A stretch of DNA of 39,099 bases from an uncultured Ruminococcus sp. (GCA_902803385.1 CADCPT010000283.1:1-39099); one strand, 5' to 3'. Positions 11,874 through 39,099 are shown, numbered from the stretch's first letter. Program-made: numbers and translations. The notes: generated by a model not told the origin, from the letters alone.

Positions 11874-11874
11874 A

Positions 11875-11903: not shown

Positions 11904-11961
11904 GTATATACCGTTTATCAGGAAAATAATCAGATATTGACGATTATTATCTCTGTTTTAC

Positions 11962-11990: not shown

Positions 11991-12090
11991 TGTACCTGTG
12001 TTGCTTGTTCAATAAGCAGTAATGGATCTATGTATGCAGCCGCGAAAAAGCTATCGGCTGTCAATAATACGCATTTTGCTGGAGGTTAAT

Positions 12091-12834: not shown

Positions 12835-12845
12835 GGGGGAGCAAA

Positions 12846-14255: not shown

Positions 14256-14266
14256 GGGGGATCGGT

Positions 14267-15286: not shown

Positions 15287-15288
15287 TA

Positions 15289-16503: not shown

Positions 16504-16930
16504 CAGAACATTTTACAATGAAATACTGACGGAGCATAATCGCTTTCCGGCTCATAAGCATAGTCTCGAAGGAGCTGATTTTTCCCTTGAAGGAGTCAAT
16601 CCGAGCTGCGGAGATGATATAGTCCTTAATCTTAAGGTAAGTGACGGGATAATAACGGACGGTTCATATGAGGGCAGCGGATGTGCGGTGTCACAGGCAT
16701 CAGCGGACATAATGCTTGATCTTGTGATAGGGAAGAGCATTGAAGAAGCACAGCGTCTTGCTGACATTTTTATGCGAATGATCAAGGATAAAATAACAGA
16801 TGAAGAGCTGGAAGAGCTTGAAGAAGCCGCAGCTCTGCAGGATATTTCACATATGCCGTCAAGAGTAAAATGTGCTGTTCTCGGATGGAGAACAATGAAT
16901 GAGATCTTCAGCGATGACAGTGTAGAGTAA
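16496..16930 (+). CDS. sufU: SufU-type (IscU/NifU-like) sulfur acceptor/scaffold.
   Basis: NPSCGDD, GSGCAVSQASA and the C-terminal KC motif are present. It overlaps sufS by 8 nt. Confidence 0.9.
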   Translation: MNNRTFYNEILTEHNRFPAHKHSLEGADFSLEGVNPSCGDDIVLNLKVSDGIITDGSYEGSGCAVSQASADIMLDLVIGKSIEEAQRLADIFMRMIKDKITDEELEELEEAAALQDISHMPSRVKCAVLGWRTMNEIFSDDSVE

Positions 16931-17168: not shown

Positions 17169-17197
17169 TTGATTTTTATATGCAATTATGCTATAAT
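17169..17197 (+). promoter_or_regulatory. SigmaA promoter with an extended -10, for the giant adhesin gene.
   Basis: TTGATT-17 nt-TATAAT with TGc immediately upstream (TGcTATAAT), about 75 nt upstream of the ATG at 17272. RBS GTGAGG. Confidence 0.6.
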
Positions 17198-17271: not shown

Positions 17272-20200
17272 ATGAAAAAATCTATTTTTAAGAGATTTAT
17301 ATCAAGCATTCTGGCGCTGTTGATGCTTATTTCAGCGTCTCCGTTTGATATGACCGTTTTTGCTTCGGATGGATATGTCGGTATCAAAAATGTTGTCTAT
17401 ACAGACCGTTCTTCTGTAAAAACACGTTATCTTCTTAAGTTTTATAAAGAGGTATATACCAGGATTCCCGTTGAGAATTTTGACGTGCTTAATCCTCAGT
17501 ATACCTTTGAGAGAAGTGAAGTCCCGGTCGCCTTTGGACCTGCGTTGAATCTTGGAAACAATACATATCTTGAAAGATCCGATTCAAATAATCAGTGTGA
17601 GCTTATACTTAAAAACGGAGATGATATAAATCTTTCTGGTAATCAGACCCTGCTTTCTTTCTTTAAGAACAATGCAATATGTCGTATTGATATTGTCTAT
17701 GACAATAATGCTCCTTCAAATAAAGCTGATAATTCTGAGTGCCTCCTTTATACAAACAGCACTGTTGATCCCGAGGAAGCCAACCCGGATGTGTACTCTG
17801 CATCTGTCACCTTTACACCTCAAAGAAATGCTTCCGGTATCACATATGATTTTTCAAGCTGTAATGCAGTTACCTTTACATCTACTACGATCGATCCCGT
17901 TGTAGTGGAACAGCTTTGGAGAGACAGCGGTAATAATCGTCCGACTGAGTATCTTCCGAGTGCTTTCTCTTTATCGAGAACTACTGACGGTGTTAGTTAT
18001 GAGTCAGTAACTGCTGACAGTTCGTCAGTTGAACCCATTACCAGCAATGATATCAATTATATTTATAAATTCCCGTCTTATGACGATGGTAATAATAAAT
18101 ACACATATAAGGCGGTTCAGTCTCCGTCTGTTCTGGTAAGGCATGAAGAAAACAAGATAAACGACCTTAAATATGAGAATATCGGTCTGACGGATGTTGA
18201 ATTCAATATTGACTGGGATGATGCAGCGCGTTCAACCTTAAGAAAGACCATTACTCCCGCTGATCTTATTTCTTATTTTGATTTTTACAGTATAGACAGC
18301 GGAGTCGAAACTCAGCTTACTCTTGATGCATCCAAAATAGAGATCAGCGGTAATAAAGTTACTATCAAAGATGTTGTCGAGATAGGTGAGGACAATGCAG
18401 CTGTTGTCTATTACATTAAGCCTAAGAATGCTCAGATAGCTGCAAGTACTTTTTTGAATAATTATTCCGGTATTGATGATGATGTCTACGGCATCACCGC
18501 AGATAATCCGGGTGTCAATTCGGCTGTTACCGACAAGGTTTATCTTGGCAATTCTCAGAACTGCGGTTCTTTAAGGATGCTTCTCAAGGGCGATACCGAA
18601 TTCGGCGGTACTATAAACTGGAGCGATAATGCTGATTGCGATACAGAAAGAAAGGATGCCGTAACTAACGGCGCCGCGGGTACCTTTACGCTTTATCGTT
18701 ATATAAACGGTCATACGGATCTTGTTTCTCAGGTCGGCTCATGGCCTATAGATGCTCCGGACGGCGAAAATGAGGACAGCTATAGTTTTCAGTTTATTGA
18801 TATCACAAACGGCAATTCCACCGTTTTGCCTAAATACGACAATAACGGAAACGAGTATATATACTTCGCTAGAGAATCTGTTAATAAAATAACTGCCGGC
18901 GGAGTGGATTATCAGTATAATGTCAGTTATTCTGATTTCCCCACAGGAACAAACTTATACTATCCTTTCAGCTCAGGCGGAAGCTATCTCGGCCATGTTG
19001 TTTTTCCGAATAATGCCACAGTTACCAATACTGTCAGCAGCAGTATAAATATCAGGGTAGAGGCTCAGTGGATTGCTGCTGCTCTCCAGGGCGGTGAAGC
19101 GTCTGTTACATATCAGGTACAGAAATACACCGGTTCAGGCTGGACTAATGTCGGTTCCTCACAAACGATAACCGACTTTTCACCAGAACGTATGCATCTT
19201 TCTGTTGATATGGGTTCCTTTGATAAATTTGATACAAACGGAGACCTTAACAAGTACCGTGTCGTTCAGACTTCTTTAAGCCGTAAAGACAGCGGTCAGA
19301 CCGGTAATTACACCTATCCTGTTGAAATGAATTATGATGCAAACGGTGATCTCGTTGTTACCGGCGGAAATATCGTAAATATCAGCAGTACAGGTGCAGA
19401 ATCTCCTGCATCCGGTGAATCTCTTTACATCATGATCGGCGGTCATCGTTTCAAAATAAGCGTAACAAAGTCAGGGAGTAACTATGTTTATACCTATACT
19501 CTGACAGACAGTGTTCCGCTCAGGATAAATAAGGACTGGAAGAATATCATGATCAAGCGAGGAGCTGACAGCAGCAACACCGCTCTTCTCACTGGTATCT
19601 GGAATTCCAACGTAACTCTCCAGCTCAATATCTACGACTTTACAAATAACAGATATATAGCGTATACACCAAACTCCGATGACCGTCCGGCAATTACCGG
19701 ACTGGATGCTAACGGTTGTTTGGTCCTGACAAGCTCCGATATGATATCTGATACCAATGAGCGTTTTTCAAAAATTCTGCAGAATGCTCCCAGGTATGAC
19801 AAGGATGGTCATGAAAACCGCTATGAGATAGTTGAAATAAACGCAACCGGCGTTTCCGGTTTTTACAAGCTCTGCACCATAACAAATAATGACGGCTATA
19901 AGGATCTTAAAGTCGATAATATTTTCAGCGGTGACGGCGAAACGATAGAATTTGAAAAGATCTGGATAAATGACGACAAGCAGCAGTATATGACTGGCAT
20001 CGTAAATATCGAAGGCTCAGCCCGTGCTATGCCGTATTACGGTCCGGGGGAGGATAACACGGTTCAGTTTGATTTTACCAATAGCAAGATCAATGCTGCT
20101 ACAGCAGGTATGGATGATCATGATACTGCAACCTCTCTGTATAATATGTACAGAAATGCTTATTATTCAAAATGGGGTTGTTATCCCGATGAAGATACAT

Positions 20201-23200
20201 ATGTATATAATGCCCCAAGCGGAACTGATCCCGGCAGCGGTTCGGAAACAAACGGAAGCATAAAATGGAATGACCCCGGCGTTACTGTTGGCACTAAGCA
20301 TTTTAACGATACCCTGACTGATAATGATATTTCTCATCTTCAGCTTTCTGACGAGGATGCAGCATCGCTCAAAAACTATGCCGGTTATCTCGGTACGGGC
20401 TTGAGCCTTACGAAAGACAGGAGCTACAGAGCTTCTCTTAATGTAAAAGACGGCTATTCAAATGTAAATAATGATCTTTCCGATAAGCTTAATGATTTCA
20501 GAGAATATCTTCCGAACCATACAGCTTCGGGCAAATTTTTCGTCCCTGTTTCAACTATAGAGGAGACGGCGAAGTCTGCTATGCTTGATGGAAGCACCAT
20601 GCTCGGTAAGGTCGTTTCTACTGAGGATGGTAATACCCACGGAACCGAAATAACTGTCACTTCAGGCAATAATGTAGGTTTTCAGGATTGTAAAAATGCT
20701 ATTTTTGTAGACGACATTGATAGATTTGAATGGCTTTCAGGCGTTTATGCCGCTCAGTTCGGCAATTATACCCACTACTATGCCGTTCAGGAAGAACCGA
20801 CTGTTGACAACAGCTGTAAGCTTAGAAAGATAACCTTCAGAAATACAATGACCGGTATCATCAATATCAAGATCGACTTTGAATGGGCATTGGGCGATTG
20901 GCTCACTGCTGCTGCAGGAGCAGATCAGATAACCTATGTTAAGGTCAAGCTTCTTGCAAACGGACAGACCGTTACCTTCCCAAGCGGTTCCGGCACGACT
21001 GATACAATTACTATACGTGTATCTGCTGATCTTAAGACATATTATCTCCGCAATCTTCCCAAGTATGACAATAAAGGAAAGCAGATCCAGTACACTGTTC
21101 AGGAATGGGAGATACAGGGTAAGTCTGTTTCAAACGGCCAATGTGTCCTAAATGCTGACAATACCTGTACAGTAAAGGTATCTACTCCTACCACTGACGA
21201 TTATGTTAACAATAAGACTTCAAACAGCGGTGATGTTATCCCGATAACTATTTCCAATAAATTTGAAGGCAGCACAAGCATTGAGATTTTCAAGCATTGG
21301 ATCGATGACAACAATGCTGCAAACACACGTTCTGACCTTTATATTTCTCTGTGGAGACATTCAACAAACACAAGAACTCCTGTTGCTGATTCTCAGCAGG
21401 GCGAGGAATACAGATGGCATAAGGACTACAATAATGAATACGTCAATGACTGGAGATATGAATTTACCGGTCTTGATAAGTATGATGCAGATGGCTTTTT
21501 ATACGAGTATTATGTGTATGAAAACCCGACATATCTTAAACCAAAGGAATATGAGACTTCCTATAGCAATACAGGATCTCATGCTTCAGGAACATATATT
21601 TCATATAACGGCATAGATCCCGGCACAGCTGTTGTAAATGCTCAGAATCTTCCTGCAAAGCGCTGCTATAACGGAGGAACGATCACAAATCAACTTAAAG
21701 CAAACAAAACCATTACCGGAGACAAGCTCTGGCAAAAGACCGACGATCTTGTTGACAAGGACTATCCTGTTGCGGACGTATTCCTGTATAAAAAATCAAA
21801 GGTAATAAATTCCTCAGATAAATTCCCGACTACACCGGTAATGTCATCTGACGGGGGATATAAGCTTGCATATTCTGTTACCGAGGATTCTGTTGACTAT
21901 AATATTGAGCTTGTCAATATCGTTCAGATCGTAAACGGTCAGAGGAACTTCAATTTTGACACCGCATATATTCTTCCCAAGAAACAAGTCGGTCCGGGCG
22001 ATAGTGCATATACTACCATTGATGAAACCAAGCTTGTATATGTATCAAACGGAGATGCAGGAAAAAATGTTGACTTTGTAAATTGTACAGGTATAACAAG
22101 TTCTCCTCTCAACAAATATGACGACAACGGTGCAAGAGTACAGTATGATCTCACCGAAAGAACAATAAACGGTTATGCATTTAAGATAAGCAATCAGACC
22201 ATTGTCAATGAATATAATGGCGGCGATCCTGTTACTGTTCAGTTCAGTAAGCAGTGGCAGAATATGACAAATAACTATGATGCATATCCGAATATAAATG
22301 TTGTACTCAAACAGTGCTACATAGGATTGACATCTAAAACAGATCCTACGCCTGCTATCAAGGTCTCTTCGACCGTAAGCAAGGAATTTGGTCCTTCAGA
22401 CTTCCAGACAGCCGGTGGAGACTTGAATGTACCTGTCACCGATCCGAAGCTTGTTAAGTTTGCGCCTAACGGAATGCGTTTCTTCTGCTATTTTGAAGAG
22501 GAAATGACAGATGCCCAGCGGATCAGGACAACGACCTTCAGGCCAACCTATGAACTTGTAACCAAAGCTCAGCTTCTTTCCAAGCTTGCAGACGGATATA
22601 AAAAGGTATATCCCTATGCCTCAGATTTCACTACAGGAAGAGTTACCCGTCCTGAAAAGGTCTACATTATTGTAAAGAGCGGCGGAACTGCCGTAACTGT
22701 TGATAAAGATGGTAATAATCTTTCGGCAGACCTTGGCGGCAATGTTACCTCCGGTGCGGATGCTGAGGGAATGATAGAGCTTGATGTTTCCGGCGACGGA
22801 ACAATCATATGTGATATCAATGACCTTCCGAGCGGAACCTATACTGTTGAAGCTGTTAAACCAGACGGTTCGGCTGATACGTCCACACTTTGCTCATTCA
22901 TTCAGACTGACGAAACTGATTCTTCAAAGCTTCACGTTATTCTTGCAAGAGGAGACGAATTTGTTTCCGTTAAGGGAAACAACAACACCACGACCGAATG
23001 CTGTATCGTAAGAAAGGCTTCTGCAGAAACTAACAAAGGTCTCGGCTTTAACTGTACGATAGGTGATATCACACCTACAGGAGAAACTACAGCTGCAGGA
23101 TCCATAACAAACCGATACGATCCCGACGATGAAGAAAACTTTGAAGCAAATATAACCGTTACAAAGAAGTGGCAGAATTACTATACAAAAACGGCAAGCG

Positions 23201-26200
23201 GTTCACAGCTTTCTGTAAACAGTAATGAAAATGCATCAAACTCTGTTTTTGCAGATGTTCAGGATTACAGCTTTGTTCTGAGCCGTCATGCCCGTTTTGT
23301 TGATGATACTGATGCCGGAAAGAGTCTTTTCAAGGTCTGGACAAATTATAACAATACCGGAAAACCATCAATTACTGATATTAACTCAGTCGATGGATTT
23401 GCTATCACATATTCCGGCTCTTTTTATGCCTACGATTCCTCTGATGTTCCTTTGTCTGAACCTGTGGATGAGTCTCAGGTCTCATACTATATGACCGAGC
23501 TTCAATTCACAAAAACGGCTTATACATCAGGTGTTTCCGGCTATATCCCTGTAACCGTCAAGGTATTTAAGTCTGATAAAAAAGTTGTGATACATGGCCT
23601 TGCAGTATTTGCCCAGACAGGCGTCGGCTATGATTATATCGTTACTGAGGATAATCAGACAGCTCATTATAATTCGAATACTCTTGATGAAACAAACAAG
23701 CAGATAAATACTTCTACAAAATACGTGGATTTTGAGCTGAAAAACAACCTCAAGACCTTCGACCTTCGTCTTAACAAGCTGTTCGGAACGAGGTACAATG
23801 ACGGTTCTTCTGATGTTGTCAATGCGTTGGCTCCGGGAGAGTATGCAGCCTATTTCAATGAAACATTTATCGGCAGACTTAAGTTCAGGCTTGAAAGAAA
23901 GCTTGGTACTGCAGGTACATGGCAGGAATACAAGACTGTCAATACCAACAGCGGTGATATTACTCTTACAAAGAGCAATGGAATGTACAGCTGTATCTTC
24001 AGATATCTGCCGATATGTGATACAAGCGGTACAAGATATTACTATCGCATTGTTGAAACTTCACAGCCGGGTAATGACGATCATTATACCATAAGCTATC
24101 CTTCAAGAGCAGACGGAAGCTATACTACTGATATTTCAACAGAGGCTTCAACTGCTTCTGATACAGGCTTGTCGCTTGATCCCAATAATTCCGGAAACTA
24201 TCGTTCAACTCAGGATCTTTATGTCCGTAATATTTTTGAATCCAAGCGGGTGAGCATTGAAAAGTTCTGGGAAGACCATAATAATGAAGACGGCACCCGT
24301 CCGACCTCACTTGAGGTCTACCTTTATGAAAAGGTAGACAGCTCTGTGACAGGCAGTTATCCTTCTCCGAATCCGTATCTCATAACCGAAACGCTCAGTT
24401 CTTCTGAAAACTGGTCTAAGAATATCACCCTTCCGCAGTACTACTACAATGCGAGTACGCCGATAGGGGATATCAAGTACACCATCCGTGAGCAGACTTT
24501 GTCGCAGGCAAAGCAAATGCTCACCACTACCGTGCCTGATCCTCAGTATCCGGGTGATACGACAACAACAAAAACCATAACCGTGCCCGATCCTGAGAAA
24601 AAGACCGCCGCGGAATACGGCTATTCGCTGACCGGCTACGGCTATATCATAGGCGGTACAAAAAACCAGGAGGGAACAAGCAATACCTTTAATGCACCCG
24701 GAACAGCCTATCAGGGCAAGAATACTCAGGCTCTTGATGGTACAAACTCAGGTTCAGTAACCTATAATATCAATGGTGTTGACGGCTTCTACCTTGAAAA
24801 CTCCAAGCCGCGCATGGATACGAACCTCAGCTTTACAAAGGCATGGGATGATTCCTCTGACAAATGGGGCGAAAGACCTGATTATTATTACATTAAGGTA
24901 GTCCGCAGATCAGAAAATGAGAATGACGCTCCTGCCGATCCGGAAGCACCTTCGGCTGATCCGGAAGCAGATGCAACAACAACTCCTTATGATGTAGTAA
25001 AGTATACCTACAGCTATACATCAGGAAATGAGTATCTCATATCAGCGTCTGACGGCACAAACACTTATACCGCAGATGCTTCGACCGGAGTTATTGCTAT
25101 CCCTAAGACCGTCAATACCGTGAATATCACACATCTTGCATATGGTGTGAGTGAAGGTGCGACAGATCAGATCAACGGTACATGGTCGCAGTATTACTAT
25201 ACTGTTGTAGAGTGCGATGAGTACGGCAACGACATTACCGCAAAGCTTACCTACAGCACAGGTAACAGTACATCTGATACAAGAACACTGAATACTTCCA
25301 AAAAGCTTACATTCAATTATACTGTCGGCTCCACCTATACAAAGACTTATTTCCATCTGAGAGTAAAAAGAACCAGTGATAATGAAGTCGTCAAGACTGA
25401 TATCAACGGTGTTCCGCTGAAAATGGTCGTTACCTACAGTAAGGACGGAACGATCTACACTGATGAATACGCCGCCGGCGGAGCACAGCACGGTATTGTT
25501 GCCGATGGTGTTATTGTTGTTCCTGTTCCTGCGAATGATGTTACGGTCGTAAGTGCTGTAATAGACGGCTTGCCCTTCGGTTCAAAGAACGGAGGTACAG
25601 TTACGCAGTACACTTACACTGTAGATCAGTGCGATTCAAGCGGTACGGAACCCAGAAACGGTGTAACGATAAACAGTATAGTTTGTTCTGATTCCGGCGT
25701 ACAGAAAGCTGCCGTTGATATGACATTTACAAAGTCATGGGATGAGAATGCCGTAAGAAACACACTTCGTTCCGATAATATGTACCTCAGGCTTTATCAG
25801 AAGCAGGAGGGCGTCAGCGGTGCGGCTGTTCCTTATTATGACGCTTCTTCATTGACTCTCACTATAGGTGAAACAACTTATTCATCTGTCGGCGGTTTGT
25901 TTACCATTCCTTTGGCTGATGCATCAGAAAGCATTACCGGTTCCATATCCGGTCTGCCGTCCGGCGATTTCCTGTCAAACGATACTGATGGATATTCTGT
26001 CTGGAAGCCTTATATCTACTACCTGGAAGAATATAATAACGATTCCGGAACTCAGAAGATGGATGCTGCAAGCCCGTATATTCCGTCATATGACGGTAAT
26101 ACGACCCCGAACGGAAGGGTCGCTCCGTTTGAAATAACGCAGGCTGATCCTGAGGATGAAAGCTCTGCATACACAAAGGCTGAGCTTTCAAGGAGGATAA

Positions 26201-29200: not shown

Positions 29201-32200
29201 TTGAAGTGACTGTTTACTGGGTGGACGATGAGGATTATCATAAGTATGCAACAAATGACGACAACAGAAAAATAACCTACACTGTCACAAGGTCTGTTGA
29301 AAATACGAATGATAACGAAAAACCGTACAGTAAAGTGGATACTGAGGATTACACTAATGCGGAAGTAGTTTATAGCGATCTTACAAATCAGCTCGTATAC
29401 AACTATGGAAACGAAAAGTATACCTACAGAGTTGAACAAAATCATCTTACAGGTTATATTACCGACTATCCTCCGGCAGCAAATTCCGAGGGAATAAATA
29501 CCGATAAGCAGACTGCCCAAGCGGTAGAAAAGGTTTCAGGTGAATCAGGCAGCGGCAAGACCCAGATGAACATCCGAAACACTCAGGTGACCGCTGATGT
29601 TGATTTTACCAAGGTCGATAAGACCTATAAGGATGAATTCAGCACAGCAACAGGCTACAGCCAGAAGGTCATCCCGGGAACAAGCTTCGATCTTAAAAAG
29701 TGGGATAATGACGGAAATGATGGTAACGATGTATCGATCCCGGTCACCCGTACTTCAACGACTGATAACGGCAAAACGAGATACACCTACACCTTCAACA
29801 CCTCGGGAACGGACTATATCGTTGCCGATGACTTCGGCGAAGTCAATTTCAAGGGTCTGCCGTTGAACAAATACTATCTGAAGGAGCTTACTGTTCCCAA
29901 GGGATTTGTTCTCGATACGAACAAGCTTGTATTCGAGCTTGACGAAAAGTGTGTTCTTGACCCGACAAACTATCCTGGCGATACGAGCAATGCAATGAGT
30001 TATGATTCAAAGCTCACCTTGCCCGGCGATGAACATCTTATCGCTGATGCAGAACAGCCGAGCAGTCTGTCTCTGACAAAACAGGGTATGGACGAAAACG
30101 GCGATATGGTTCCGCTTGAAAAAGCGACTTATCAGCTGTTGAGGCTCATCCCGTTCGAGCTTAACACCAACACAACGGTCACAGCGGCCGCCGAGACTGC
30201 CGCTCAGAACAGTGGCGGAACAAAGACAGCCGAGCAGTGCTACCTTGAAAGCGCAGCTAATGCAGTCAGGAATACGCCCTCTGATGTCAGCAAATACTGG
30301 ACATCTAGCTATAAGGATATCAATAATTCAGCTCAGACGACCACTTACCAGACAACTGTAAATGGCACTATACAGGCAAATGACCTTACCTTCGGCACAT
30401 ATGTATTCTATGAGGTCCAGGCGCCTGTGGGTTACAATATTGATCGCACTCTGGAGCCTGTTACGATCAATGCACAAACTATCGCGGCAGACTTCCCGTC
30501 TGTATCACCGCCGTACAGCTTTACATCAGTATATAAGCTGACGGAGGATACAACAGACGCTGCCGATGCAAGAGACACCGTGCATATCGATCCTCAGAAG
30601 GATGCGCATGTCCAGGTACAGAAAACCGACGAATTCGGCAATGCATTGAATGAAGCTGAATTTGAGCTGTATTATGATCCGGAGATCGAACCTCTTGTGA
30701 CCCCGAAATCTGACAATGATTATATTTTCTTTACTGATGTAAAAGAGAACCGTTGGATAACAGGTACAATAGAAACGTCTTCACCTAATAAGGGTAGGTT
30801 CAACATAGATGATGAAAATGCATTTGTCTATGCCTGCTATACTCTGTCTGATAACAGTACATCTATTGTGAAGATGGATGAAAGGTATGTTGTTCATTTC
30901 AATTCTGGAGATCAGGATTATGATGTTATCCATAAGATCCAACCTCCGGATAATGCTGTCAGTGTTTTCTTTATGAATGCTGAAACACTTGAAAGCTGTA
31001 CCAATAGGACTGTTGAAATGCCGCTGAAAAAAGGCTATGGCTATAAGAGAAGTGATAATACAACAACTTCTATCGGGGGTAAGTCAACATATGGTCTTAC
31101 AGAGTGGAAACTTACAACAAATGATCTGCTTGATGATGGTGTTACGGTTTCTTCAACTGTAGAATTCAAGCCTACCAATAATAAAGTAGTTATCTGTCTC
31201 GACAGTGGTTATGACTGGGATGATCTGCATATTTGCTTCTTTGATTCATCTGATAATCCTGTTGGTCAGACATTCCCGGGTTATATGCTTGAAAACTATA
31301 GCGGCATTAGAATCCAGAGCGGAGTATTTTATGAATTGACCATTCCTGAAGGTGCTTCTAAATTCAGCCTTAATAACGGTGCAAAAGAAAACGGTGATAT
31401 GAAATACTACAGTACAAATAAGTATAGTATTCTAACCAGTGCTGACTATCAGAATGGCGGCAACTATTATCATTTCACAGGAGACTTTACACAGGTTGGA
31501 GAAATAAAGGTATTTACTCTGGAACAATATACGAGTGCAATGCCCAGAACAGTAGCTTCAGGATCAAACGGTGAGATCTCAGATAATGACTATGTTTATT
31601 TCACTCATCCGGGAAGTCCTTATCAGTCGAAACTGTACGCATACTTCTACAACGCTGATGATACAGAATATCAGGCATGGCCCGGACTTCCTTCTGAAGG
31701 GACATATGTAAATGAGTATAGTCAGAATGTTTATAAGTTCAGGATTCCTGATGGTTATAGCTATGTTATTTTCAATGATAATAGTGGTAATCAGATACCT
31801 GCGAGTAATTCGAGTGAAAAAGTAGCTGCTGTAAGAGGTCGGGGATATTATATTAATGGCAATACTCTTGGACATTGGGTTCAAGCTGGCTTAGCTGTCA
31901 CGGAAACCTATACTGCGCTCTCTTCTACACTCGGTCTTGAAAAAAACATGTACATTTGTGAAACTTCAGGAAACTGGGATAGAATACATATTCTCTTCTA
32001 CGATTCAGACGGAAATGTTATCCACCAGTCGTCACCGGGTTACATACCGCAGTACATTGGAGTAGCCTCTGTATCCAATTCAAGCGGCAAATGCTACAGC
32101 ATTGTTATTCCGGATGATGCCGCAAGCTTCAAGGTCGTGAACAGTGATAATAACGGCATAGTAGCCTCCTCCTCCGCAGCTGTTTACCCCGGCGGCATTT

Positions 32201-34041
32201 ACACGATCGGAGCAAAGTCTTCCAATGCCAATATTACTCAGCATTCTCCGATCAAGGTCGCCACTCTTAAAACCGGCGACGACGGCTACACCAAGGTCAA
32301 CTCTGTTGAGCTTACAACGGCAGGGCGTGATTATGCATCAGTCGATACGGATAATAAGACCATAGTGCTTACGAAGTGGGGTAATTATTACTTCAAGGAA
32401 ACAAAGGCTCCAACGGGATATGAAATCACAAATGAGTATTATCCCTTCACTGTTGACAGTGCTGTTGCAAACCTTCCGCTTTATGTAGTAACAGCAAGCA
32501 ACAGCCGTAAGTTTGGTCTTGTGCAGCTTACTAAGATCTCTTCCGAGATTCTTAATGATACCGACGCCGGAACCGTACTCACTAATAACTCAAGCTTTGA
32601 GATGTATAAGTATGTTGACGGAACGTATGACGGAACAGCCGCACACGATCAGAAGATCGCGGTCAGATCCCTTACATCCGGCTCCTACGCATATGATGAC
32701 GGCGGAAGCAGTTATACACTTACGACCTCATCCGGTACGTTTACGGTATCCGGTCTGCCTTGGGGCAAGTACTATTTCAAGGAAACAAGCGCCCCAACAG
32801 GCTATAAGGTGAACGAAGACAATATCTACTTCACAGTCGGAAGAAACAGTCCGGAAATTGTTTCCGTATACTGTCAGGACGAGATCGTTCCTGCAAGCCT
32901 GAACATCAAAAAGGAGATAGATGATTGGGTAGATGAATGGGGAGATCCGACATTTATCTTCACGGTAAAGAATACCACTGCAGGCGCACGGAATTACGGG
33001 CGCGAGCAGAGGTTCAGTATTACCTTTGCATCCGGTGACAGAACTGAACGCAATTCAAGTAACAGGTTTGAAAAGACCATAGAAGATATCGAGCTCGAAC
33101 CCGGAAGCTATGAGGTGACTGAGCTTCAGGTCGCAAGATTCAGTTGTTCGGATGTTACTGTCACAGGCGGCAGTTCAACCTCTACTGTTTTGGCTGATCG
33201 TAAAGCTTCATTCACAGTTGCTGCAAACGATAACGTTACTGCAGCATATACAAATACGTTGAATTATTACGATAAGTTCAGCCATGCTGACAGTGTGACC
33301 AATGTATTTAATGGTATAAAGGGAATAGAAGTACAGTGTATAGCACCCGTTGATGTTCCCGACAGGATACTTGCTGCAAATGGTGTCCATTATGAAGAGG
33401 ATCTTACAAAGAGCAGCGTTCTCAGCGCTTACTTTGTAAAGGCTGACGGAACAAAGCAGCCTCTGACTAACGACCAACTCAAAAAGCTTACGATAACTTA
33501 TCCGGCTCAGAGCAATGATGATCCGTTCAGGATCACTGACAGCGGTAGCAATAAGGATACCTTCAAGCTTGTTACCGAACCTGTTATTTCCTCAGGCTGC
33601 GTATATGGGCTGAGAGCTTCCTATCAGTACGATCAGACTCATAGCTTCACCGATGATTTTAAGCTTACCTTCAAGGATAACAACAATATTGTTCAGAGGA
33701 CAGTTACCTTCAAGGCTGATGACAACGGTTACACTTATTTCGATCTCGGAAACGGTGAGACGACTGACGAACTGAAATTCACCTATTACATCGTCAATAA
33801 CGGCACCGCTAATGAGATCCATGCAGTCACCTACAAGGGTGTGATCCTCAGCGGAAAGCATGCGGATGTTATAACCTATGCTAATACAATAACCATCAAC
33901 TCAGGTTATTCCGGCTCATATCAGTTTGGCTCACAGAAATGGAATACTACAGGCAGTGTTCCGTATGCAAACCTTGATACAGGTATTCTTACTGCAAGCC
34001 GGGATATTGTATACACTATTAATGTTGTTACGATAACATAA
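17272..34041 (+). CDS. Giant secreted cell-surface adhesin-like protein (5589 aa). Order of parts: Sec signal peptide; ~175-aa non-repeat head; more than 20 CnaB-like (isopeptide-type) domains; SpaA/prealbumin-like domains; ~500-aa CBM25/26-like insert; ~385-aa unique C-terminal region. It has no LPXTG.
   Basis: This is one uninterrupted ORF. The signal peptide is MKKSIFKRFISSILALLMLISASPFDMTVFA/SDG. The CnaB-like domain-start motif xxKxWxDxxNxxxxRP recurs (IEKFWEDHNNEDGTRP, AKKVWNDENNLYGTRP, ATKVWSDQNNNFALRP, VQKNWIDFDNRYSLRP, FTKAWDDSSDKWGERP). The mid-domain motif LPKYDxxGxxxxYxVxE recurs (LPKYDNNGNEYIYFARE, LPKYDNKGKQIQYTVQE, LPKYDENGETYYYRVVE). Domain-end [IV][TR]N motifs are present. 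SpaA-like ends include GLPLNKYYLKELTVPKGFVLD, GTYVFYEVQAPVGYNID, WGNYYFKETKAPTGYEIT and WGKYYFKETSAPTGYKVN. The C-terminus is ...RDIVYTINVVTIT*. Confidence 0.9.
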   Translation: MKKSIFKRFISSILALLMLISASPFDMTVFASDGYVGIKNVVYTDRSSVKTRYLLKFYKEVYTRIPVENFDVLNPQYTFERSEVPVAFGPALNLGNNTYLERSDSNNQCELILKNGDDINLSGNQTLLSFFKNNAICRIDIVYDNNAPSNKADNSECLLYTNSTVDPEEANPDVYSASVTFTPQRNASGITYDFSSCNAVTFTSTTIDPVVVEQLWRDSGNNRPTEYLPSAFSLSRTTDGVSYESVTADSSSVEPITSNDINYIYKFPSYDDGNNKYTYKAVQSPSVLVRHEENKINDLKYENIGLTDVEFNIDWDDAARSTLRKTITPADLISYFDFYSIDSGVETQLTLDASKIEISGNKVTIKDVVEIGEDNAAVVYYIKPKNAQIAASTFLNNYSGIDDDVYGITADNPGVNSAVTDKVYLGNSQNCGSLRMLLKGDTEFGGTINWSDNADCDTERKDAVTNGAAGTFTLYRYINGHTDLVSQVGSWPIDAPDGENEDSYSFQFIDITNGNSTVLPKYDNNGNEYIYFARESVNKITAGGVDYQYNVSYSDFPTGTNLYYPFSSGGSYLGHVVFPNNATVTNTVSSSINIRVEAQWIAAALQGGEASVTYQVQKYTGSGWTNVGSSQTITDFSPERMHLSVDMGSFDKFDTNGDLNKYRVVQTSLSRKDSGQTGNYTYPVEMNYDANGDLVVTGGNIVNISSTGAESPASGESLYIMIGGHRFKISVTKSGSNYVYTYTLTDSVPLRINKDWKNIMIKRGADSSNTALLTGIWNSNVTLQLNIYDFTNNRYIAYTPNSDDRPAITGLDANGCLVLTSSDMISDTNERFSKILQNAPRYDKDGHENRYEIVEINATGVSGFYKLCTITNNDGYKDLKVDNIFSGDGETIEFEKIWINDDKQQYMTGIVNIEGSARAMPYYGPGEDNTVQFDFTNSKINAATAGMDDHDTATSLYNMYRNAYYSKWGCYPDEDTYVYNAPSGTDPGSGSETNGSIKWNDPGVTVGTKHFNDTLTDNDISHLQLSDEDAASLKNYAGYLGTGLSLTKDRSYRASLNVKDGYSNVNNDLSDKLNDFREYLPNHTASGKFFVPVSTIEETAKSAMLDGSTMLGKVVSTEDGNTHGTEITVTSGNNVGFQDCKNAIFVDDIDRFEWLSGVYAAQFGNYTHYYAVQEEPTVDNSCKLRKITFRNTMTGIINIKIDFEWALGDWLTAAAGADQITYVKVKLLANGQTVTFPSGSGTTDTITIRVSADLKTYYLRNLPKYDNKGKQIQYTVQEWEIQGKSVSNGQCVLNADNTCTVKVSTPTTDDYVNNKTSNSGDVIPITISNKFEGSTSIEIFKHWIDDNNAANTRSDLYISLWRHSTNTRTPVADSQQGEEYRWHKDYNNEYVNDWRYEFTGLDKYDADGFLYEYYVYENPTYLKPKEYETSYSNTGSHASGTYISYNGIDPGTAVVNAQNLPAKRCYNGGTITNQLKANKTITGDKLWQKTDDLVDKDYPVADVFLYKKSKVINSSDKFPTTPVMSSDGGYKLAYSVTEDSVDYNIELVNIVQIVNGQRNFNFDTAYILPKKQVGPGDSAYTTIDETKLVYVSNGDAGKNVDFVNCTGITSSPLNKYDDNGARVQYDLTERTINGYAFKISNQTIVNEYNGGDPVTVQFSKQWQNMTNNYDAYPNINVVLKQCYIGLTSKTDPTPAIKVSSTVSKEFGPSDFQTAGGDLNVPVTDPKLVKFAPNGMRFFCYFEEEMTDAQRIRTTTFRPTYELVTKAQLLSKLADGYKKVYPYASDFTTGRVTRPEKVYIIVKSGGTAVTVDKDGNNLSADLGGNVTSGADAEGMIELDVSGDGTIICDINDLPSGTYTVEAVKPDGSADTSTLCSFIQTDETDSSKLHVILARGDEFVSVKGNNNTTTECCIVRKASAETNKGLGFNCTIGDITPTGETTAAGSITNRYDPDDEENFEANITVTKKWQNYYTKTASGSQLSVNSNENASNSVFADVQDYSFVLSRHARFVDDTDAGKSLFKVWTNYNNTGKPSITDINSVDGFAITYSGSFYAYDSSDVPLSEPVDESQVSYYMTELQFTKTAYTSGVSGYIPVTVKVFKSDKKVVIHGLAVFAQTGVGYDYIVTEDNQTAHYNSNTLDETNKQINTSTKYVDFELKNNLKTFDLRLNKLFGTRYNDGSSDVVNALAPGEYAAYFNETFIGRLKFRLERKLGTAGTWQEYKTVNTNSGDITLTKSNGMYSCIFRYLPICDTSGTRYYYRIVETSQPGNDDHYTISYPSRADGSYTTDISTEASTASDTGLSLDPNNSGNYRSTQDLYVRNIFESKRVSIEKFWEDHNNEDGTRPTSLEVYLYEKVDSSVTGSYPSPNPYLITETLSSSENWSKNITLPQYYYNASTPIGDIKYTIREQTLSQAKQMLTTTVPDPQYPGDTTTTKTITVPDPEKKTAAEYGYSLTGYGYIIGGTKNQEGTSNTFNAPGTAYQGKNTQALDGTNSGSVTYNINGVDGFYLENSKPRMDTNLSFTKAWDDSSDKWGERPDYYYIKVVRRSENENDAPADPEAPSADPEADATTTPYDVVKYTYSYTSGNEYLISASDGTNTYTADASTGVIAIPKTVNTVNITHLAYGVSEGATDQINGTWSQYYYTVVECDEYGNDITAKLTYSTGNSTSDTRTLNTSKKLTFNYTVGSTYTKTYFHLRVKRTSDNEVVKTDINGVPLKMVVTYSKDGTIYTDEYAAGGAQHGIVADGVIVVPVPANDVTVVSAVIDGLPFGSKNGGTVTQYTYTVDQCDSSGTEPRNGVTINSIVCSDSGVQKAAVDMTFTKSWDENAVRNTLRSDNMYLRLYQKQEGVSGAAVPYYDASSLTLTIGETTYSSVGGLFTIPLADASESITGSISGLPSGDFLSNDTDGYSVWKPYIYYLEEYNNDSGTQKMDAASPYIPSYDGNTTPNGRVAPFEITQADPEDESSAYTKAELSRRIKNSLEPTEHIMQKTWIDDAESQDSRTAYTVKLQRKAGVAGSWNDVSFSAAGDVRYYDDSTEGSPLPIADGGTTAFTLLADKLNVIFKNLPKYDENGETYYYRVVESMVGTNNVVGSDNDQTKRYMFQIPNGTYVSKWHRGTENYYVDYVDTPAGEDTISKTEIRNEIVKNTVSFVHIEAKKVWNDENNLYGTRPESITYQLKRRIKTITKTGEGDEAVLEVTKSEDTTFNSKTDDTQKTVSEDDSWTAHWSHCAAFDVHGSEYEYYVEELSVSGYDQSGPEVTTTTDVNSELTQTNTFTNTPTNTESDPVLTNNRYRLDATKVWSDQNNNFALRPAKVTFTLYCKYDIWEYRDEEGEAIANPTPENRGTLTKADEGYDQPVYSAAVGDDPDDPDYVPEVVSAVYGRLSAADRAKLVQTLTVSEKVGSDTNTWRVTFTGLPTSVNTSATDMLAGKSVPVTYYVVETFKDSSDNDITATVKKTYRCADADDSCESSEVALGGADKTGDNGLSLTNTLDTRDITVTLKWVDNSYGNNKADRDSLHYNVAVSLTNSMLASTASGKTDEGLYKETKVIDTTHCKTQDSDPIKQGVIFKDLPIYDASGNIIIYSVSEELTTATAVAADQNGTFNGSGSSAAAEFTQNTSADKRQYGYNGSCTMNTAAGYGSDTYVTQYNITNELPLTAFDVQKNWIDFDNRYSLRPTTITDGNTTSSRTDYSTLYLSLQRKSGEASYAALEPNTAAKKEDRYTAASSGTSTGTWTYTYTKLLKYDKNNIIYSFNIVETQHRSYEAPRYCTSGNYDTVGAASTQELTGDSLTALANSAAKWNGTNKLSAKMQVTNKLDTREIKVTKTWNDNGYANDDSSVQNDLHYNIAVTLSNSALGCNENNRHDNSGKYKETKVLAANSTDALVFRELPRYFNDGSEIVYSIAEAKNETTAAATGTDVTATLETSAASDVAANVFTYDTVNRKYGYVGSCKERRDSSATPVVMQYDITNTLPLTDVEVTVYWVDDEDYHKYATNDDNRKITYTVTRSVENTNDNEKPYSKVDTEDYTNAEVVYSDLTNQLVYNYGNEKYTYRVEQNHLTGYITDYPPAANSEGINTDKQTAQAVEKVSGESGSGKTQMNIRNTQVTADVDFTKVDKTYKDEFSTATGYSQKVIPGTSFDLKKWDNDGNDGNDVSIPVTRTSTTDNGKTRYTYTFNTSGTDYIVADDFGEVNFKGLPLNKYYLKELTVPKGFVLDTNKLVFELDEKCVLDPTNYPGDTSNAMSYDSKLTLPGDEHLIADAEQPSSLSLTKQGMDENGDMVPLEKATYQLLRLIPFELNTNTTVTAAAETAAQNSGGTKTAEQCYLESAANAVRNTPSDVSKYWTSSYKDINNSAQTTTYQTTVNGTIQANDLTFGTYVFYEVQAPVGYNIDRTLEPVTINAQTIAADFPSVSPPYSFTSVYKLTEDTTDAADARDTVHIDPQKDAHVQVQKTDEFGNALNEAEFELYYDPEIEPLVTPKSDNDYIFFTDVKENRWITGTIETSSPNKGRFNIDDENAFVYACYTLSDNSTSIVKMDERYVVHFNSGDQDYDVIHKIQPPDNAVSVFFMNAETLESCTNRTVEMPLKKGYGYKRSDNTTTSIGGKSTYGLTEWKLTTNDLLDDGVTVSSTVEFKPTNNKVVICLDSGYDWDDLHICFFDSSDNPVGQTFPGYMLENYSGIRIQSGVFYELTIPEGASKFSLNNGAKENGDMKYYSTNKYSILTSADYQNGGNYYHFTGDFTQVGEIKVFTLEQYTSAMPRTVASGSNGEISDNDYVYFTHPGSPYQSKLYAYFYNADDTEYQAWPGLPSEGTYVNEYSQNVYKFRIPDGYSYVIFNDNSGNQIPASNSSEKVAAVRGRGYYINGNTLGHWVQAGLAVTETYTALSSTLGLEKNMYICETSGNWDRIHILFYDSDGNVIHQSSPGYIPQYIGVASVSNSSGKCYSIVIPDDAASFKVVNSDNNGIVASSSAAVYPGGIYTIGAKSSNANITQHSPIKVATLKTGDDGYTKVNSVELTTAGRDYASVDTDNKTIVLTKWGNYYFKETKAPTGYEITNEYYPFTVDSAVANLPLYVVTASNSRKFGLVQLTKISSEILNDTDAGTVLTNNSSFEMYKYVDGTYDGTAAHDQKIAVRSLTSGSYAYDDGGSSYTLTTSSGTFTVSGLPWGKYYFKETSAPTGYKVNEDNIYFTVGRNSPEIVSVYCQDEIVPASLNIKKEIDDWVDEWGDPTFIFTVKNTTAGARNYGREQRFSITFASGDRTERNSSNRFEKTIEDIELEPGSYEVTELQVARFSCSDVTVTGGSSTSTVLADRKASFTVAANDNVTAAYTNTLNYYDKFSHADSVTNVFNGIKGIEVQCIAPVDVPDRILAANGVHYEEDLTKSSVLSAYFVKADGTKQPLTNDQLKKLTITYPAQSNDDPFRITDSGSNKDTFKLVTEPVISSGCVYGLRASYQYDQTHSFTDDFKLTFKDNNNIVQRTVTFKADDNGYTYFDLGNGETTDELKFTYYIVNNGTANEIHAVTYKGVILSGKHADVITYANTITINSGYSGSYQFGSQKWNTTGSVPYANLDTGILTASRDIVYTINVVTIT
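27727..29590 (+). repeat. Diverged tandem duplication of a two-domain unit inside the giant gene (about 27727-28700 and 28704-29590).
   Basis: The translations are parallel. Unit 1 reads LTNTLDTRDITVTLKWVDNSYGNNKADRDSLHYNVAVSLTNS...KRQYGYNGSC...VTQYNITNELPLTAFDVQKNW. Unit 2 reads VTNKLDTREIKVTKTWNDNGYANDDSSVQNDLHYNIAVTLSNS...NRKYGYVGSC...VMQYDITNTLPLTDVEVTVYW. Confidence 0.8.
30712..32215 (+). other. Four starch-binding-module-like (CBM25/26-like) repeats inserted between SpaA-like domains of the giant protein. Approximate module starts are 30712, 31178, 31582 and 31945.
   Basis: Module 3 is DNDYVYFTHPGSPYQSKLYAYFYNADDTEYQAWPGLPSEGTYVNEYSQNVYKFRIPDGYSYVIFNDNSGNQIP. It has the pattern vYF..p..w..vyaYfw....... 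aWPG..m...g..Y.f.ip.....viFnd..g.Q typical of amylase-associated starch-binding modules. Modules 2 and 4 keep the frame but carry TFPGYML and SSPGYIP instead of WPG. Module 1 is weaker. Confidence 0.6.
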
Positions 34042-34262
34042 CCGAAAGGAGAGAGGGAAATGCCTCATGGTATCAGAATAAAAATTATAATACAAAGGGC
34101 TTTCTCTCTCCCGACGGCTTTGGCCTTTGCTCCGGAACAGTGTGACGGGATCTATGAAAACTATTTCAGACTATTGTTTATTAGTATTCTAAATAATTCT
34201 AAAGCATACGCTATTCAGAGAAACGTTCCTGCGTATGCTGCTGCAAACAGGAGATGATGAGT

Positions 34263-35066
34263 ATGAAAAATAAAAAACGGATCCTACCGATAATTGCTGT
34301 TTCGGCGATGCTCGTCATTCTCCTTGCATCCAGCTCGGTCGTTTCTTATCTTATGGATAACGATAACAAGGATAATGTAATAAAGATAGGCAAGGTCGAT
34401 CTTGAGCTTTCCGAAACGCTGTTCCAGAATAGTCAGGCGGTTGTACCGGGAAGCAAGATGGATAAAAATCCTGTTGTCACTAACAGCGGCACAGTTTCGG
34501 AGTATGTTTTCCTAAAGGTCACAGTGCCAAAGGCAAATGTCACCCTCCTTAATGAAAATGGCGAAACGAACGAAGGAAAACCGAAATATACCGGGACGAG
34601 AATAGTTGAATTGTTTCGTATAGGTTCTGATGGACCTGGCACTTCTACATCAACTAAAATTTCCGATATCCAGACAGGAGCACCTCCGGTCTCTGTAGAT
34701 AATGATATATATTATAATAAAGGAGACGGTACCAATAGCATTGAGGGTTGGTATTATCTAAGCACAAAAACCGAGGTCAATACCGATTCCGATGTTTATT
34801 ACTTTGGCTATAACAAAGCCCTTGCGCCTGATGACACCACTACCGACGGAACGAACGAAGCCGAAAGTACTATCACTTTGTTTGACAATATCCAGCTCAA
34901 GAGCTTTATCGAAGGGCAGGAATCGGGTAATGTCACAGTTGATGTTGTAGCTTATGGAATACAGAAGGACAATCTCACAGGTATTGATAATTCCGGTACA
35001 TATCTCAGCGACGCAGATATAGTCAAGGTGTTTGAAACTCTTATGAATAATTTGGGAGGAAGTTGA
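34263..35066 (+). CDS. TasA/BsaA/camelysin-like protein with a SipW-dependent-type signal peptide.
   Basis: The N-terminus is MKNKKRILPIIAVSAMLVILLASSSVVSYLMDNDNKDNVIKIGKVDLELSE...VVPGSKMDKNPVVTNSGTVSEYVFLKVTVP. It follows the pattern hydrophobic core, [ST]-[YF]-[LF]-x-D, N-x-[FI]-x-x-G-x-[VL]-x-[IL], then PG...KdP.V.N.G seen in TasA-family proteins. The C-terminal part has the motifs EGWYYL, YYFGYN and TLFDNIQL. I chose the ATG at 34263, 9 nt after AGGAG; the ORF-track start is 34254. Confidence 0.7.
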   Translation: MKNKKRILPIIAVSAMLVILLASSSVVSYLMDNDNKDNVIKIGKVDLELSETLFQNSQAVVPGSKMDKNPVVTNSGTVSEYVFLKVTVPKANVTLLNENGETNEGKPKYTGTRIVELFRIGSDGPGTSTSTKISDIQTGAPPVSVDNDIYYNKGDGTNSIEGWYYLSTKTEVNTDSDVYYFGYNKALAPDDTTTDGTNEAESTITLFDNIQLKSFIEGQESGNVTVDVVAYGIQKDNLTGIDNSGTYLSDADIVKVFETLMNNLGGS

Positions 35067-35071
35067 TCATT

Positions 35072-35761
35072 ATGAAAAAAATAACACGAAAATCATTAGT
35101 GATCGCTTTTTCTGCTGCAGCTCTTTCGCTTGCACTGGTATTTACAGTCTGGGCGTATTTTGCGGCGCATGATGATAAGAATAATGTCTTTACTATCGGT
35201 AACATCGGAACGGTTACAAATGCTTCTGAAAGCCGTCAGATTTCTGAAACGTTTTCATCTCCGGAGATACAGGCTGTAAATGAAACCGTTACCAAAACCG
35301 TTAGCGTGAGGAACAATTCGTCTAACAAATGCTTTGCCCGTATGTATTTTGACTTTTCAGACAGTAAGATAAGAGATAATGCAAAAATATATGTCGGAGA
35401 AACAGAATACAGCTGGTCGGATTTTATAAGTACAGCAAAAGGTGCTGGTATCAATGGCTGGAAATATATTGATCCGAGTGAAAATAATACAGCTCTTGCA
35501 GGGTATTTCTATTATATGACGGCACTTGATGCAAAGAGCGGAAACAGTATTCCCACAACTCAGCCATTGTTTACTTCCGTAAAAACAGATTTCAGAAAAG
35601 ATACTGTTCCGGATGGTCTGTCTCAGGAGGATTTCATTAAGAACTATAATATAATAGTTTACAGTGAGACTGTTCAGACTGTAGAAACGAGCACAGGACT
35701 CGATTATTCATCAACAAACAACTGGAAGGAAGCTTGGCAAAGCTTCCTAAAGGTTACATGA
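35072..35761 (+). CDS. Second TasA/BsaA/camelysin-like protein with a SipW-dependent-type signal peptide.
   Basis: The N-terminus MKKITRKSLVIAFSAAALSLALVFTVWAYFAAHDDKNNVFTIGNIG has a textbook 'AYF..' junction followed by N-x-F-x-x-G. Later motifs are NGWKYI, GYFYYMTAL and PLFTSV. The ATG at 35072 lies 11 nt after GGAGGA and 5 nt after the upstream stop. Confidence 0.75.
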   Translation: MKKITRKSLVIAFSAAALSLALVFTVWAYFAAHDDKNNVFTIGNIGTVTNASESRQISETFSSPEIQAVNETVTKTVSVRNNSSNKCFARMYFDFSDSKIRDNAKIYVGETEYSWSDFISTAKGAGINGWKYIDPSENNTALAGYFYYMTALDAKSGNSIPTTQPLFTSVKTDFRKDTVPDGLSQEDFIKNYNIIVYSETVQTVETSTGLDYSSTNNWKEAWQSFLKVT

Positions 35762-35764: not shown

Positions 35765-35806
35765 AAAAAAGTCTCAGGGCGGCTTTACCGCTCTGAGATT
35801 TTTTAT
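35765..35806. terminator. Bidirectional intrinsic terminator between the TasA-like pair (+) and upp (-).
   Basis: aaaaaagtctcagggcgg-cttta-ccgctctgagatttttt has A and T runs on both sides. Confidence 0.85.
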
Positions 35807-38899: not shown

Positions 38900-39099
38900 T
38901 TCGATACACTCCTTGTTTTTATTCTGGTTTACTGTGTTGTCCTTTTTAAGAATTACGGTTGTTTTCATTTTGATTCGCTCCTTTTATTTTTTTGAGGTGT
39001 TCCCCTCTGTTGTGAAATTGTCAATATTACTTGACACAATTTGAACGAACGATTTCAGGCAGCCAAGGACACCTTGCTATAGTAAAGGCTTCTCTTAAC

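Follow-up and report, generated by a model that had tools for sequence, protein, structure and literature searches.

The closest described system to the locus considered here is the sipW-bsaA-bsaB-bsaC operon of Clostridium perfringens, which also encodes a large von Willebrand factor A-domain (vWA) protein, BsaC. Both BsaA and TasA, its counterpart in the genus Bacillus, polymerise through donor-strand exchange (PMC9674648), and mutagenesis has shown that a triad of BsaA residues (N35/E56/K74) locks the polymers via an intermolecular isopeptide bond (Kivimaki et al., bioRxiv 10.1101/2024.11.04.621531). The same authors report BsaA/TasA genes in putative operons with genes for SpaA-domain proteins, LPxTG proteins, signal peptidases and sortases, report multiple BsaA/TasA paralogues per operon, and suggest the formation of heteropolymers (Kivimaki et al., bioRxiv 10.1101/2024.11.04.621531). 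Among the Bacillus TasA systems are tapA-sipW-tasA of B. subtilis and sipW-tasA-capP-calY of B. cereus (PMC9674648, PMC10151520, PMC13082335). Here we describe a locus of this general kind in a 39,099-nucleotide stretch of DNA from an uncultured Ruminococcus sp. (GCA_902803385.1 CADCPT010000283.1:1-39099; "the window" denotes this whole stretch), in which the gene for a giant secreted adhesin of 5589 amino acids (aa), devoid of any sorting signal, stands upstream of two genes for TasA/BsaA-like proteins that belong to a family of three paralogues, T1, T2 and T3, referred to collectively as the T genes.

The placement of a rare C-terminal module, Y2, directly upstream of TasA/BsaA genes suggests a sortase-independent display of giant adhesins. 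According to the reading that we prefer, and to which we would give a probability of roughly one in two, the T proteins, once processed by SipW, exchange donor strands to build a fibre that acts as a general-purpose platform, on which the giant docks via Y2 as an optional cargo. To our knowledge, the retention of very large LPXTG-less adhesins by Gram-positive bacteria is poorly understood, and TasA/BsaA fibres have hitherto been treated as matrix scaffolds, not as carriers.

Linkage between Y2-ending giants and T genes

The giants that adjoin T genes all end in the same four elements, which we call domain X, the linker, domain Y1 and domain Y2. A giant with CnaB-like repeats lies immediately upstream of T genes in the window and in loci L001, L002, L015, L019, L020 and L023, and the gap between giant and T genes is no more than 25 bp in several loci (e.g., L001, L002, L019, L033 and L035). 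T genes accompany all 12 of the divergent, LPXTG-less giants that end X-linker-Y1-Y2, even though (as judged by 27-35% identity in Y1-Y2) these have diverged widely from one another; the three related giants that stop after Y1 and lack Y2 are each followed by a resolvase gene and have no T genes within 10 kb. An exhaustive HMMER search of 1.84 billion representatives with Y1-Y2 yielded nine clusters only, and the five of these that were looked up, each found via the giant alone, all have T1, T2 and T3 directly downstream, as confirmed with hidden Markov models (HMMs). The preliminary description of this stretch, which was made from the sequence alone, had proposed that the co-occurrence of LPXTG-less giants with adjacent TasA-like genes be looked for in relatives, and the outcome is strongly positive (12/12, five of them found through the giant's C-terminus alone). 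It had also named several findings that would argue against its proposal; as to these, no cryptic anchor was seen, the T genes do have family matches, and the gene neighbourhood is conserved.

In the three giants without Y2, which have DUF7601/DUF5979 repeats and lengths of 5219-6322 aa, the X-linker-Y1 segment is a separate ORF (open reading frame) that follows in frame right after the stop codon of the body (L029 and L030, 9863-9866; L028, 8422-10001). The stop codon may mark a pseudogene, be recoded in translation or stem from an error of assembly.

The linkage is one-way: T genes are often found without a giant (L003/L024, L011, L014, L017 and L022), and a Y2 giant has never been seen without T genes. 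Loci with and without a giant are interspersed on the T3 tree, from which it appears that the family as a whole has either retained the association or acquired it anew. One of the giant-less loci, L011 (Ruminococcus sp. RUG12347), is syntenic with the window (Upp 81% and SpoVAD 68% identical), and for this reason the T cluster appears to be older than the giant at the window site. The gene order is spoVAD-T1-T2-T3-upp in L011 (7122-11305) and spoVAD-sufCBDSU-giant-T2-T3-upp in the window (10332-16930 region).

The existence of this corresponding but giant-less site between spoVAD and upp, along with the IS66 transposases that flank the cluster in L001 and L002, can be read as the trace of a historical accident, i.e., the single insertion of a mobile adhesin gene beside an unrelated fibre operon and its inheritance ever since. 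We consider such an origin of the linkage to be very improbable, because the association persists where Y1-Y2 and T3 have diverged to 27-35% and 33-59% identity, respectively, because it occurs in different chromosomal contexts and is interspersed with giant-less loci on the T3 tree, and because all five of the matches ascertained through the giant alone turned out to be T-linked.

The giant adhesin and its C-terminal module

The giant gene occupies positions 17272..34041 (+ strand), where translation shows the 5589-codon ORF of the preliminary description to be intact, with zero internal stops; its further characterization draws on Pfam, hydropathy and a repeat HMM. The extended -10 promoter claimed for it corresponds to a promoter-like site at 17169..17197 (+; TTGATT-17 nt-TATAAT with an upstream TG), which is a match by consensus only in a scan that returned four such sites as compared to 3.5 expected from shuffles. 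A Shine-Dalgarno sequence, GAGG, lies 8 nt 5' of the ATG. The N-terminus, MKKSIFKR-FISSILALLMLISA-SPFDMTVFA/SDG, combines a basic n-region with a hydrophobic core of 14 residues and a site of cleavage type, VFA/SDG, and by these features and its hydropathy it resembles an ordinary leader for signal peptidase I, in keeping with the Sec signal peptide noted earlier (aa 1-32; 17272..17367, +; predicted cleavage after VFA).

At the other end, ...RDIVYTINVVTIT, nothing of the kind expected for a wall-anchored protein was detected. The C-terminal region has neither an LPXTG-type motif (the sole LPxT[GAS] of the protein, LPLTA, is internal and lies at aa 3654) nor a hydrophobic tail (the maximum hydropathy over the last 200 aa is 1.0); aa 4-32 is the only hydrophobic window at the termini, and there is one internal window at aa ~2742-2747. 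The Pfam models for SLH, LysM, choline-binding (CWB1/2), GW, SH3b, dockerin or other wall-binding domains have no match anywhere in the giant, and no wall-binding Pfam domain was matched even at E<=5 by the last 258 aa (Y1-Y2) of the window giant and nine relatives. Motif, hydropathy and Pfam scans thus all agree with the absence of anchoring features that had been reported from the sequence. The 12 related giants are likewise without a sorting signal, and their C-termini end ...TA.LK..T.P. The Y1-Y2 search also turned up, on another contig, a near-identical copy of the window giant (P0016) with one difference (GSPKWN vs GSQKWN) in the last 60 residues shown; the record of this copy gives a length of 4908 aa and a start at an internal Met, aa 687, probably owing to the end of its contig. 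T2 was found on seven contigs, and from this and the near-identical P0016 it follows that the same organism recurs across several samples.

Most of the length of the giant is taken up by an array of 18 CnaB-like repeats of ~150 aa each (aa 206-4115; 17887..29616, +), as delimited by a self-trained HMM, and three unassigned inserts (aa 940-1195, 1701-2168 and 2688-2813) interrupt the array. Six Cna_B (PF05738) stretches were reported by Pfam, with scores of 97.9 and 92.4 bits, together with about five SpaA modules (PF17802, 116 bits) and one SpaA_2-like module. The earlier count of more than 20 CnaB domains was therefore slightly high, and that of several SpaA domains was about right. SpaA (prealbumin-like) modules are located at aa ~4130-4500 (29659..30771, +), and two more at aa ~5020-5200 (32329..32871, +). 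Between these lie three CBM26-like, putatively starch-binding modules (aa 4637-4712, 4774-4842 and 4891-4965; 31180..32166, +) that had been missed in the preliminary description. The middle one (aa ~4775-4846) scores 48.5 bits against PF16738 (cut-off 28.1), from which starch binding is predicted; the three can be aligned with one another, and the HMM built from them also matches the giants of L001, L002 and L023. By these predicted domains, the giant is a Sec-exported protein consisting of a very long stalk of isopeptide-type Ig-like domains with CBM26-like modules near its C-terminus.

The C-terminal module begins with domain X (aa ~5205-5331; 32884..33264, +), which is of the pilin-type CnaB/SpaA_2-like kind according to weak Pfam matches (SpaA_2/DUF5979), its AlphaFold2 (AF2) model and Foldseek. 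The domain carries the motifs WGDPTFIF and YEVTE, with Lys, Glu and Asn positioned as in isopeptide domains; its AF2 model has a predicted local distance difference test score (pLDDT) of 75-90, and the top Foldseek matches are major pilins of Streptococcus pyogenes (6bbt, 6bbw and 3gle). It has been kept in every related giant and also in the 1070-aa product of the gene that opens a Ruminococcus sipW operon, a protein that stops just past the YYDKFS linker. The linker itself, YYDKFSHADSVTNVFNGIKG (aa 5332-5349; 33265..33318, +), is invariant at Y133, Y134, D135, K136, F137, N145 and F147 in alignments A2 and A3. All related giants, T-less ones included, carry its consensus, YYDKFSHxDSxxNxFNG, with little or no variation, which is an unusual degree of conservation for a linker. 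Domain Y1 (aa ~5350-5474; 33319..33693, +) is beta-rich, has no family match and occurs in the T-less related giants as well. Domain Y2 (aa ~5475-5589; 33694..34038, +), recognised by alignment from the pattern TVTFKADxxNxSYF ... W ... I.YTA.L, is without a Pfam match and is, on the strength of its distribution, a candidate coupling module between the giant and the T genes. Its assignment to the Listeria-Bacteroides (Flg_new) repeat was considered and dropped, there being no Pfam support for it. A homologue search with the last 260 aa of the giant gave zero matches in an index from which the giants are apparently absent, and a profile query returned fragments only.

The T proteins and their operon

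The stop codon of the giant is separated from the next ORF by 212 nt in which, as had been stated, no canonical terminator can be recognised; the spacer has no T1 remnant either. Directly 3' of the giant stop there is a long hairpin lacking a U-tract (34048..34111, +), found by folding a 225-nt region (minimum free energy -57.6 kcal/mol, z -2.15), and this is possibly a 3' stabiliser or an attenuator. No riboswitch or other known RNA was found in the window at Rfam gathering thresholds. Downstream of the spacer are T2 (34254..35066, +), identified by Pfam and alignment as a 270-aa TasA-like (Peptidase_M73) protein with a predicted SipW-type leader, and T3 (35072..35761, +; ATG at 35072, alternative start TTG at 35063), a 229-aa BsaA-family-like protein. 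The stop codon of T2 either overlaps with or directly adjoins the start of T3, which follows a Shine-Dalgarno sequence (GGGAGG), so that the two may well be translationally coupled, as first proposed; the unit is closed by the strong bidirectional intrinsic terminator described earlier, a hairpin of 17 pairs flanked by an A-run and a T-run (35766..35804) and shared with the convergent upp.

The affiliation of the two proteins is clearest when they are considered along with their relatives. T2 scores 25.1 bits against the TasA/camelysin family model (Peptidase_M73, PF12389; cut-off 22.5), with the match limited to aa 12-88, and has a weak match to the BsaA family model TIGR04090. PF12389 matches 13 of 32 T1/T2 relatives. 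T3 of the window, taken alone, has no family-model match above cut-off; TIGR04090 has matches in 17 of the 18 T3 orthologues (best E 9e-18), and hhalign relates the T3 family to the T1/T2 family with a probability of 99.2% (E 2e-19). The TasA/BsaA-like nature ascribed to the pair at the outset is in this way upheld, directly for T2 and through orthologues and alignment for T3. T3 scores 17.1 bits, below the cut-off of 19, against TIGR04088, the model for the SipW-dependent signal pattern ...A[YF][LF]xDxxxxxNxF..G; the motif ...A[YF]L.D.....N.[IF]..G.V...L.E is common to 49 related N-termini, for which SipW-type cleavage is predicted. As far as sequence comparison can establish it, T2 and T3 are TasA/BsaA-superfamily proteins with putative SipW-type leaders. 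Structural comparison gave a weak indication in the same direction: the top PDB match found by Foldseek for the AF2 model of T2 (predicted template modelling score, pTM, 0.65) is the TasA fibre 8aur_A (E 2.6e-3, probability 0.57), and the third is the cannula protein CanA. Sequence and profile searches of the PDB, made from T2 and from the T1/T2 and T3 alignments, gave nothing meaningful. Three residues each are invariant in the 32 T1/T2 sequences (N41, E54 and K71 in T2 numbering) and in the 18 T3 sequences (N38, E59 and K75 in T3 numbering). In T3 the Asn-Glu-Lys spacing, 21 and 16 residues, can be compared with 21 and 18 in the BsaA triad, a likeness of spacing and not of aligned positions.

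All of the relatives found for T2 and T3 come from rumen metagenomes or from metagenome-assembled genomes named Ruminococcus sp. or Clostridiales, and the cluster usually consists of three paralogues in the order T1-T2-T3. The pair of TasA-like genes recognised in the preliminary description is indeed present in the window; it is actually a reduced form of this conserved triple, from which T1 has been lost, as it has independently in L020. Two Peptidase_S26 (SipW-type) genes follow T3 directly in L014, L015, L017, L018, L022 and L023 (PF10502, 33 and 29.7 bits, cut-off 22.9), and their presence in these six relatives supports the SipW dependence of the T proteins. After the S26 pair comes the gene for a T-like protein of larger size (415-713 aa), the N-terminus of which, MASKSKRRRRVLGASCILAALIIAGSSFAWFTSKDEVTNRL, is nearly identical (S26 pair and larger protein together: L014 4068-7644; L015 7519-8824; L017 5932-8240; L018 2555-5426; L022 11069-14936; L023 10896-13544). 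In the two closest relatives, L001 (11568-13208) and L002 (11574-13229), an IS66-family transposase gene directly follows T3; it occupies the place of the sipW pair of other relatives, which suggests that the 3' part of the operon has been replaced there. The window itself, as had been noted, has neither a sortase nor a sipW gene, since Pfam scans of the neighbouring genes found no sortase and no S26 peptidase in its 39 kb; among the 601 ORFs of the 28 loci examined, no sortase TLxTC motif and no LPXTG-type signal was detected. From its gene content, the window locus is best described as the reduced form of an operon that is conserved in rumen Ruminococcus, [giant]-T1-T2-T3(-sipW-sipW-large T-like protein).

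A more distant Ruminococcus operon (L006-L010) has seven genes, the first of which encodes a secreted protein of 1070-1197 aa ending in domain X and the linker; the others encode SipW, a T3 orthologue, three proteins of the T1/T2 type, and a TasA-like protein that is anchored by a transmembrane segment at its C-terminus. The anchored protein (L006 7872-9179; L009 7860-9188; 435-442 aa) starts with a Sec leader and an N-terminal strand like that of TasA, TEVTNIVEVGEVDISL, and its transmembrane segment carries a basic tail. The protein is plausibly a membrane-anchored base subunit of the fibre, with no counterpart in the window or in its close relatives.

The presence of three distinct and conserved paralogues, instead of one major subunit, raises the question of whether some or all of the T proteins might serve the giant as strand-complementing chaperones or as factors for its export or assembly, much as TapA does TasA or CapP does CalY. 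Accessory proteins such as TapA and CapP provide a precedent in TasA-type systems (PMC10151520, PMC13082335), and BsaB is reported to form dimers only. We consider a role of this kind rather improbable, given that T clusters are conserved where no giant adjoins them, that the T3 orthologues match the polymerising BsaA family, and that T1 is dispensable, having been lost independently in the window and L020.

The remainder of the window is of a housekeeping nature and includes genes for a RelA/SpoT-domain (small alarmone synthetase-like) protein, an Rsm22-like methyltransferase, a D-Ala-D-Ala carboxypeptidase and a methionine aminopeptidase, as well as spoVAD, sufCBDSU and upp. Two other genes deserve mention. 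The first (4534-7641, +) encodes a protein of 1035 aa in which Reg_prop beta-propeller repeats are combined with a Y_Y_Y domain and, at the C-terminus, an HD_5/HD domain of the HD-GYP type, possibly a cyclic di-GMP phosphodiesterase sensor that could regulate adhesion. The second (36749-38968, -), two genes downstream of the T genes and beyond the convergent upp, encodes a 739-aa protein with Chlamydia-PMP repeats, a right-handed beta-helix, an N-terminal leader and no recognisable anchor, i.e., a putative second anchorless surface protein.

Proposed coupling of giant and fibre, and comparison with known systems

If the T proteins are indeed a platform for the giant, a SipW-type peptidase encoded elsewhere in the genome would cleave the leaders of T2 and T3, which would then polymerise through the exchange of their N-terminal donor strands. 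The resulting fibre or platform would need no sortase and would possibly be locked by a BsaA-type Asn-Lys isopeptide bond. The fibre would capture the giant through Y2, so that a starch-binding adhesin lacking its own anchor would be displayed or retained; the fibre would also work without the giant. The more specific version, in which Y2 is a dedicated docking module by which a TasA/BsaA-type donor-strand fibre captures the giant, possibly covalently through an Asn-Lys lock, is offered tentatively and seems to us doubtful.

Two ways in which the contact might be made were explored. The first, that the C-terminus of the giant is a TasA-like acceptor domain placed at the tip of the fibre in the style of FimH, was abandoned when HMM and hhalign comparisons proved negative. 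The second, that the linker segment DSVTNVFNG mimics a donor strand, arose from a likeness, seen by eye, to the N-terminus of mature T1 (FDEVTNVFEGG). The single alignment that hhalign produced between Y1-Y2 and T1/T2 falls exactly on this segment, with a probability of 0.08%. A position-specific scoring matrix derived from 49 T N-termini and applied to nine large proteins never placed the linker among the top scores, all of which lay within the shuffled null, and this idea was set aside as unsupported.

Several points weigh against the docking of the giant on a T fibre. Physical coupling of the two is inferred, and both of the specific ideas as to its nature failed; comparison of Y1-Y2 with TasA-like profiles (HMM and hhalign) gave no detectable similarity (hhalign probability 0.1-0.2%), and AF2 folding of Y1-Y2 gave no usable model (pLDDT below 50). 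Since the CBM26 modules sit near the C-terminus, docking through Y2 would hold them near the attachment point. The confidence of the T2 model is moderate (pLDDT 61.6) and its TasA match has a TM-score of only 0.22-0.25, and the N-E-K match to BsaA, resting on spacing and not on alignment, is a lead. The fibre genes evidently do not need the giant, as T clusters occur without any; the 212-nt spacer and its strong hairpin make the co-transcription of giant and T2-T3 uncertain; and the window, without T1, sipW or the large T-like protein, holds an incomplete and possibly non-functional local system.

Some of the same observations accord with a different arrangement, in which the giant and the T proteins are components of the matrix that are regulated together and have no physical connection, the giant being a free or loosely wall-associated bridge between cell and starch and the T proteins a separate biofilm scaffold of the TasA/BsaA type, with the genes linked by a need for both at the same time. 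T clusters without giants, the lack of any similarity or complementary motif between the C-terminus of the giant and the T proteins, and the hairpin and spacer that divide the genes in the window are all in its favour, as is the apparently independent secretion of the co-encoded C. perfringens BsaC with respect to BsaA oligomers. What independence leaves unexplained is why Y2 is found only beside T genes (12/12, as compared to 0/3 for the Y2-less giants) and why the giant is always immediately 5' of T1, often with a gap of no more than 25 bp, and on balance we judge it to be unlikely.

The locus offers a sharply delimited and testable pair, namely the 115-residue Y2 module and the two or three small fibre proteins that invariably accompany it. 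An interaction between Y2 and the T proteins, if true, would define a sortase-independent display system, would explain how Ruminococcus-like bacteria of the rumen attach to starch granules, and would offer a self-assembling and possibly self-locking scaffold for protein display. Docking through Y2 would add a further route to adhesin-bearing fibres in Gram-positive bacteria, besides sortase pili and type IV pili, with the fibre as generic platform and the giants as exchangeable cargo. If there is no such interaction, the locus still shows clearly that a BsaA-type operon of uncultured rumen bacteria can include a giant adhesin as an accessory.

As is the case for the bsa operon of C. perfringens, the locus and its relatives combine putative SipW-type leaders, several TasA-like paralogues per operon (with T3 orthologues that match TIGR04090), invariant N, E and K residues at BsaA-like spacing, fibre subunits without LPXTG, and a large, co-encoded protein of adhesive type. 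The two differ in that the partner here is a 5589-aa CnaB/SpaA/CBM26 giant encoded by the first gene, whereas the bsa partner is a 70-kDa vWA protein encoded by the last; in the rare Y2 module, which is found only beside T genes; in the absence of sipW from the window; and in the three conserved orthogroups T1, T2 and T3 (T1 missing in the window) of a clade that is known from its genes alone. With the Bacillus TasA systems, which are sortase-independent extracellular filaments with accessory proteins, the common ground consists of the membership of T2 in Peptidase_M73 and the best structural match of its model, the TasA fibre 8aur. Identity to the Bacillus proteins is very low, the PDB profile search was empty and the window locus has no TapA or CapP homologue; Bacillus TasA, for its part, has no N-E-K triad, and the Bacillus systems have no associated giant adhesin. 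We found no paper on TasA-like systems in Ruminococcus.

The giant shares Cna_B and SpaA domains, the pilin-like domain X and the Lys/Glu/Asn isopeptide pattern with sortase-anchored proteins such as Cna, SpaA and Spy0128, and differs from them in having neither LPXTG nor a hydrophobic tail, with no sortase in the window and no sortase motif in the 28 loci. CBM26-type modules on a surface protein of a Ruminococcus-like host are also a feature of Sas6 and Sas20 of Ruminococcus bromii (PMC9112005, PMC4611034); unlike the R. bromii amylosome, no dockerin or cohesin was detected here, and the CBM26 modules are carried on a giant stalk of Ig-like domains that is tied to TasA-like genes. The authors of the preliminary description knew of no system with this combination. 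BsaA/TasA genes beside SpaA-domain genes had in fact already been reported for other species, and what is new is the partnership of such genes with a Y2-ending giant: a giant, LPXTG-less CnaB/SpaA/CBM26 partner for the T genes, a rare C-terminal module that is found only beside them, and a T1/T2/T3 orthogroup structure that is conserved in an uncultured rumen clade.

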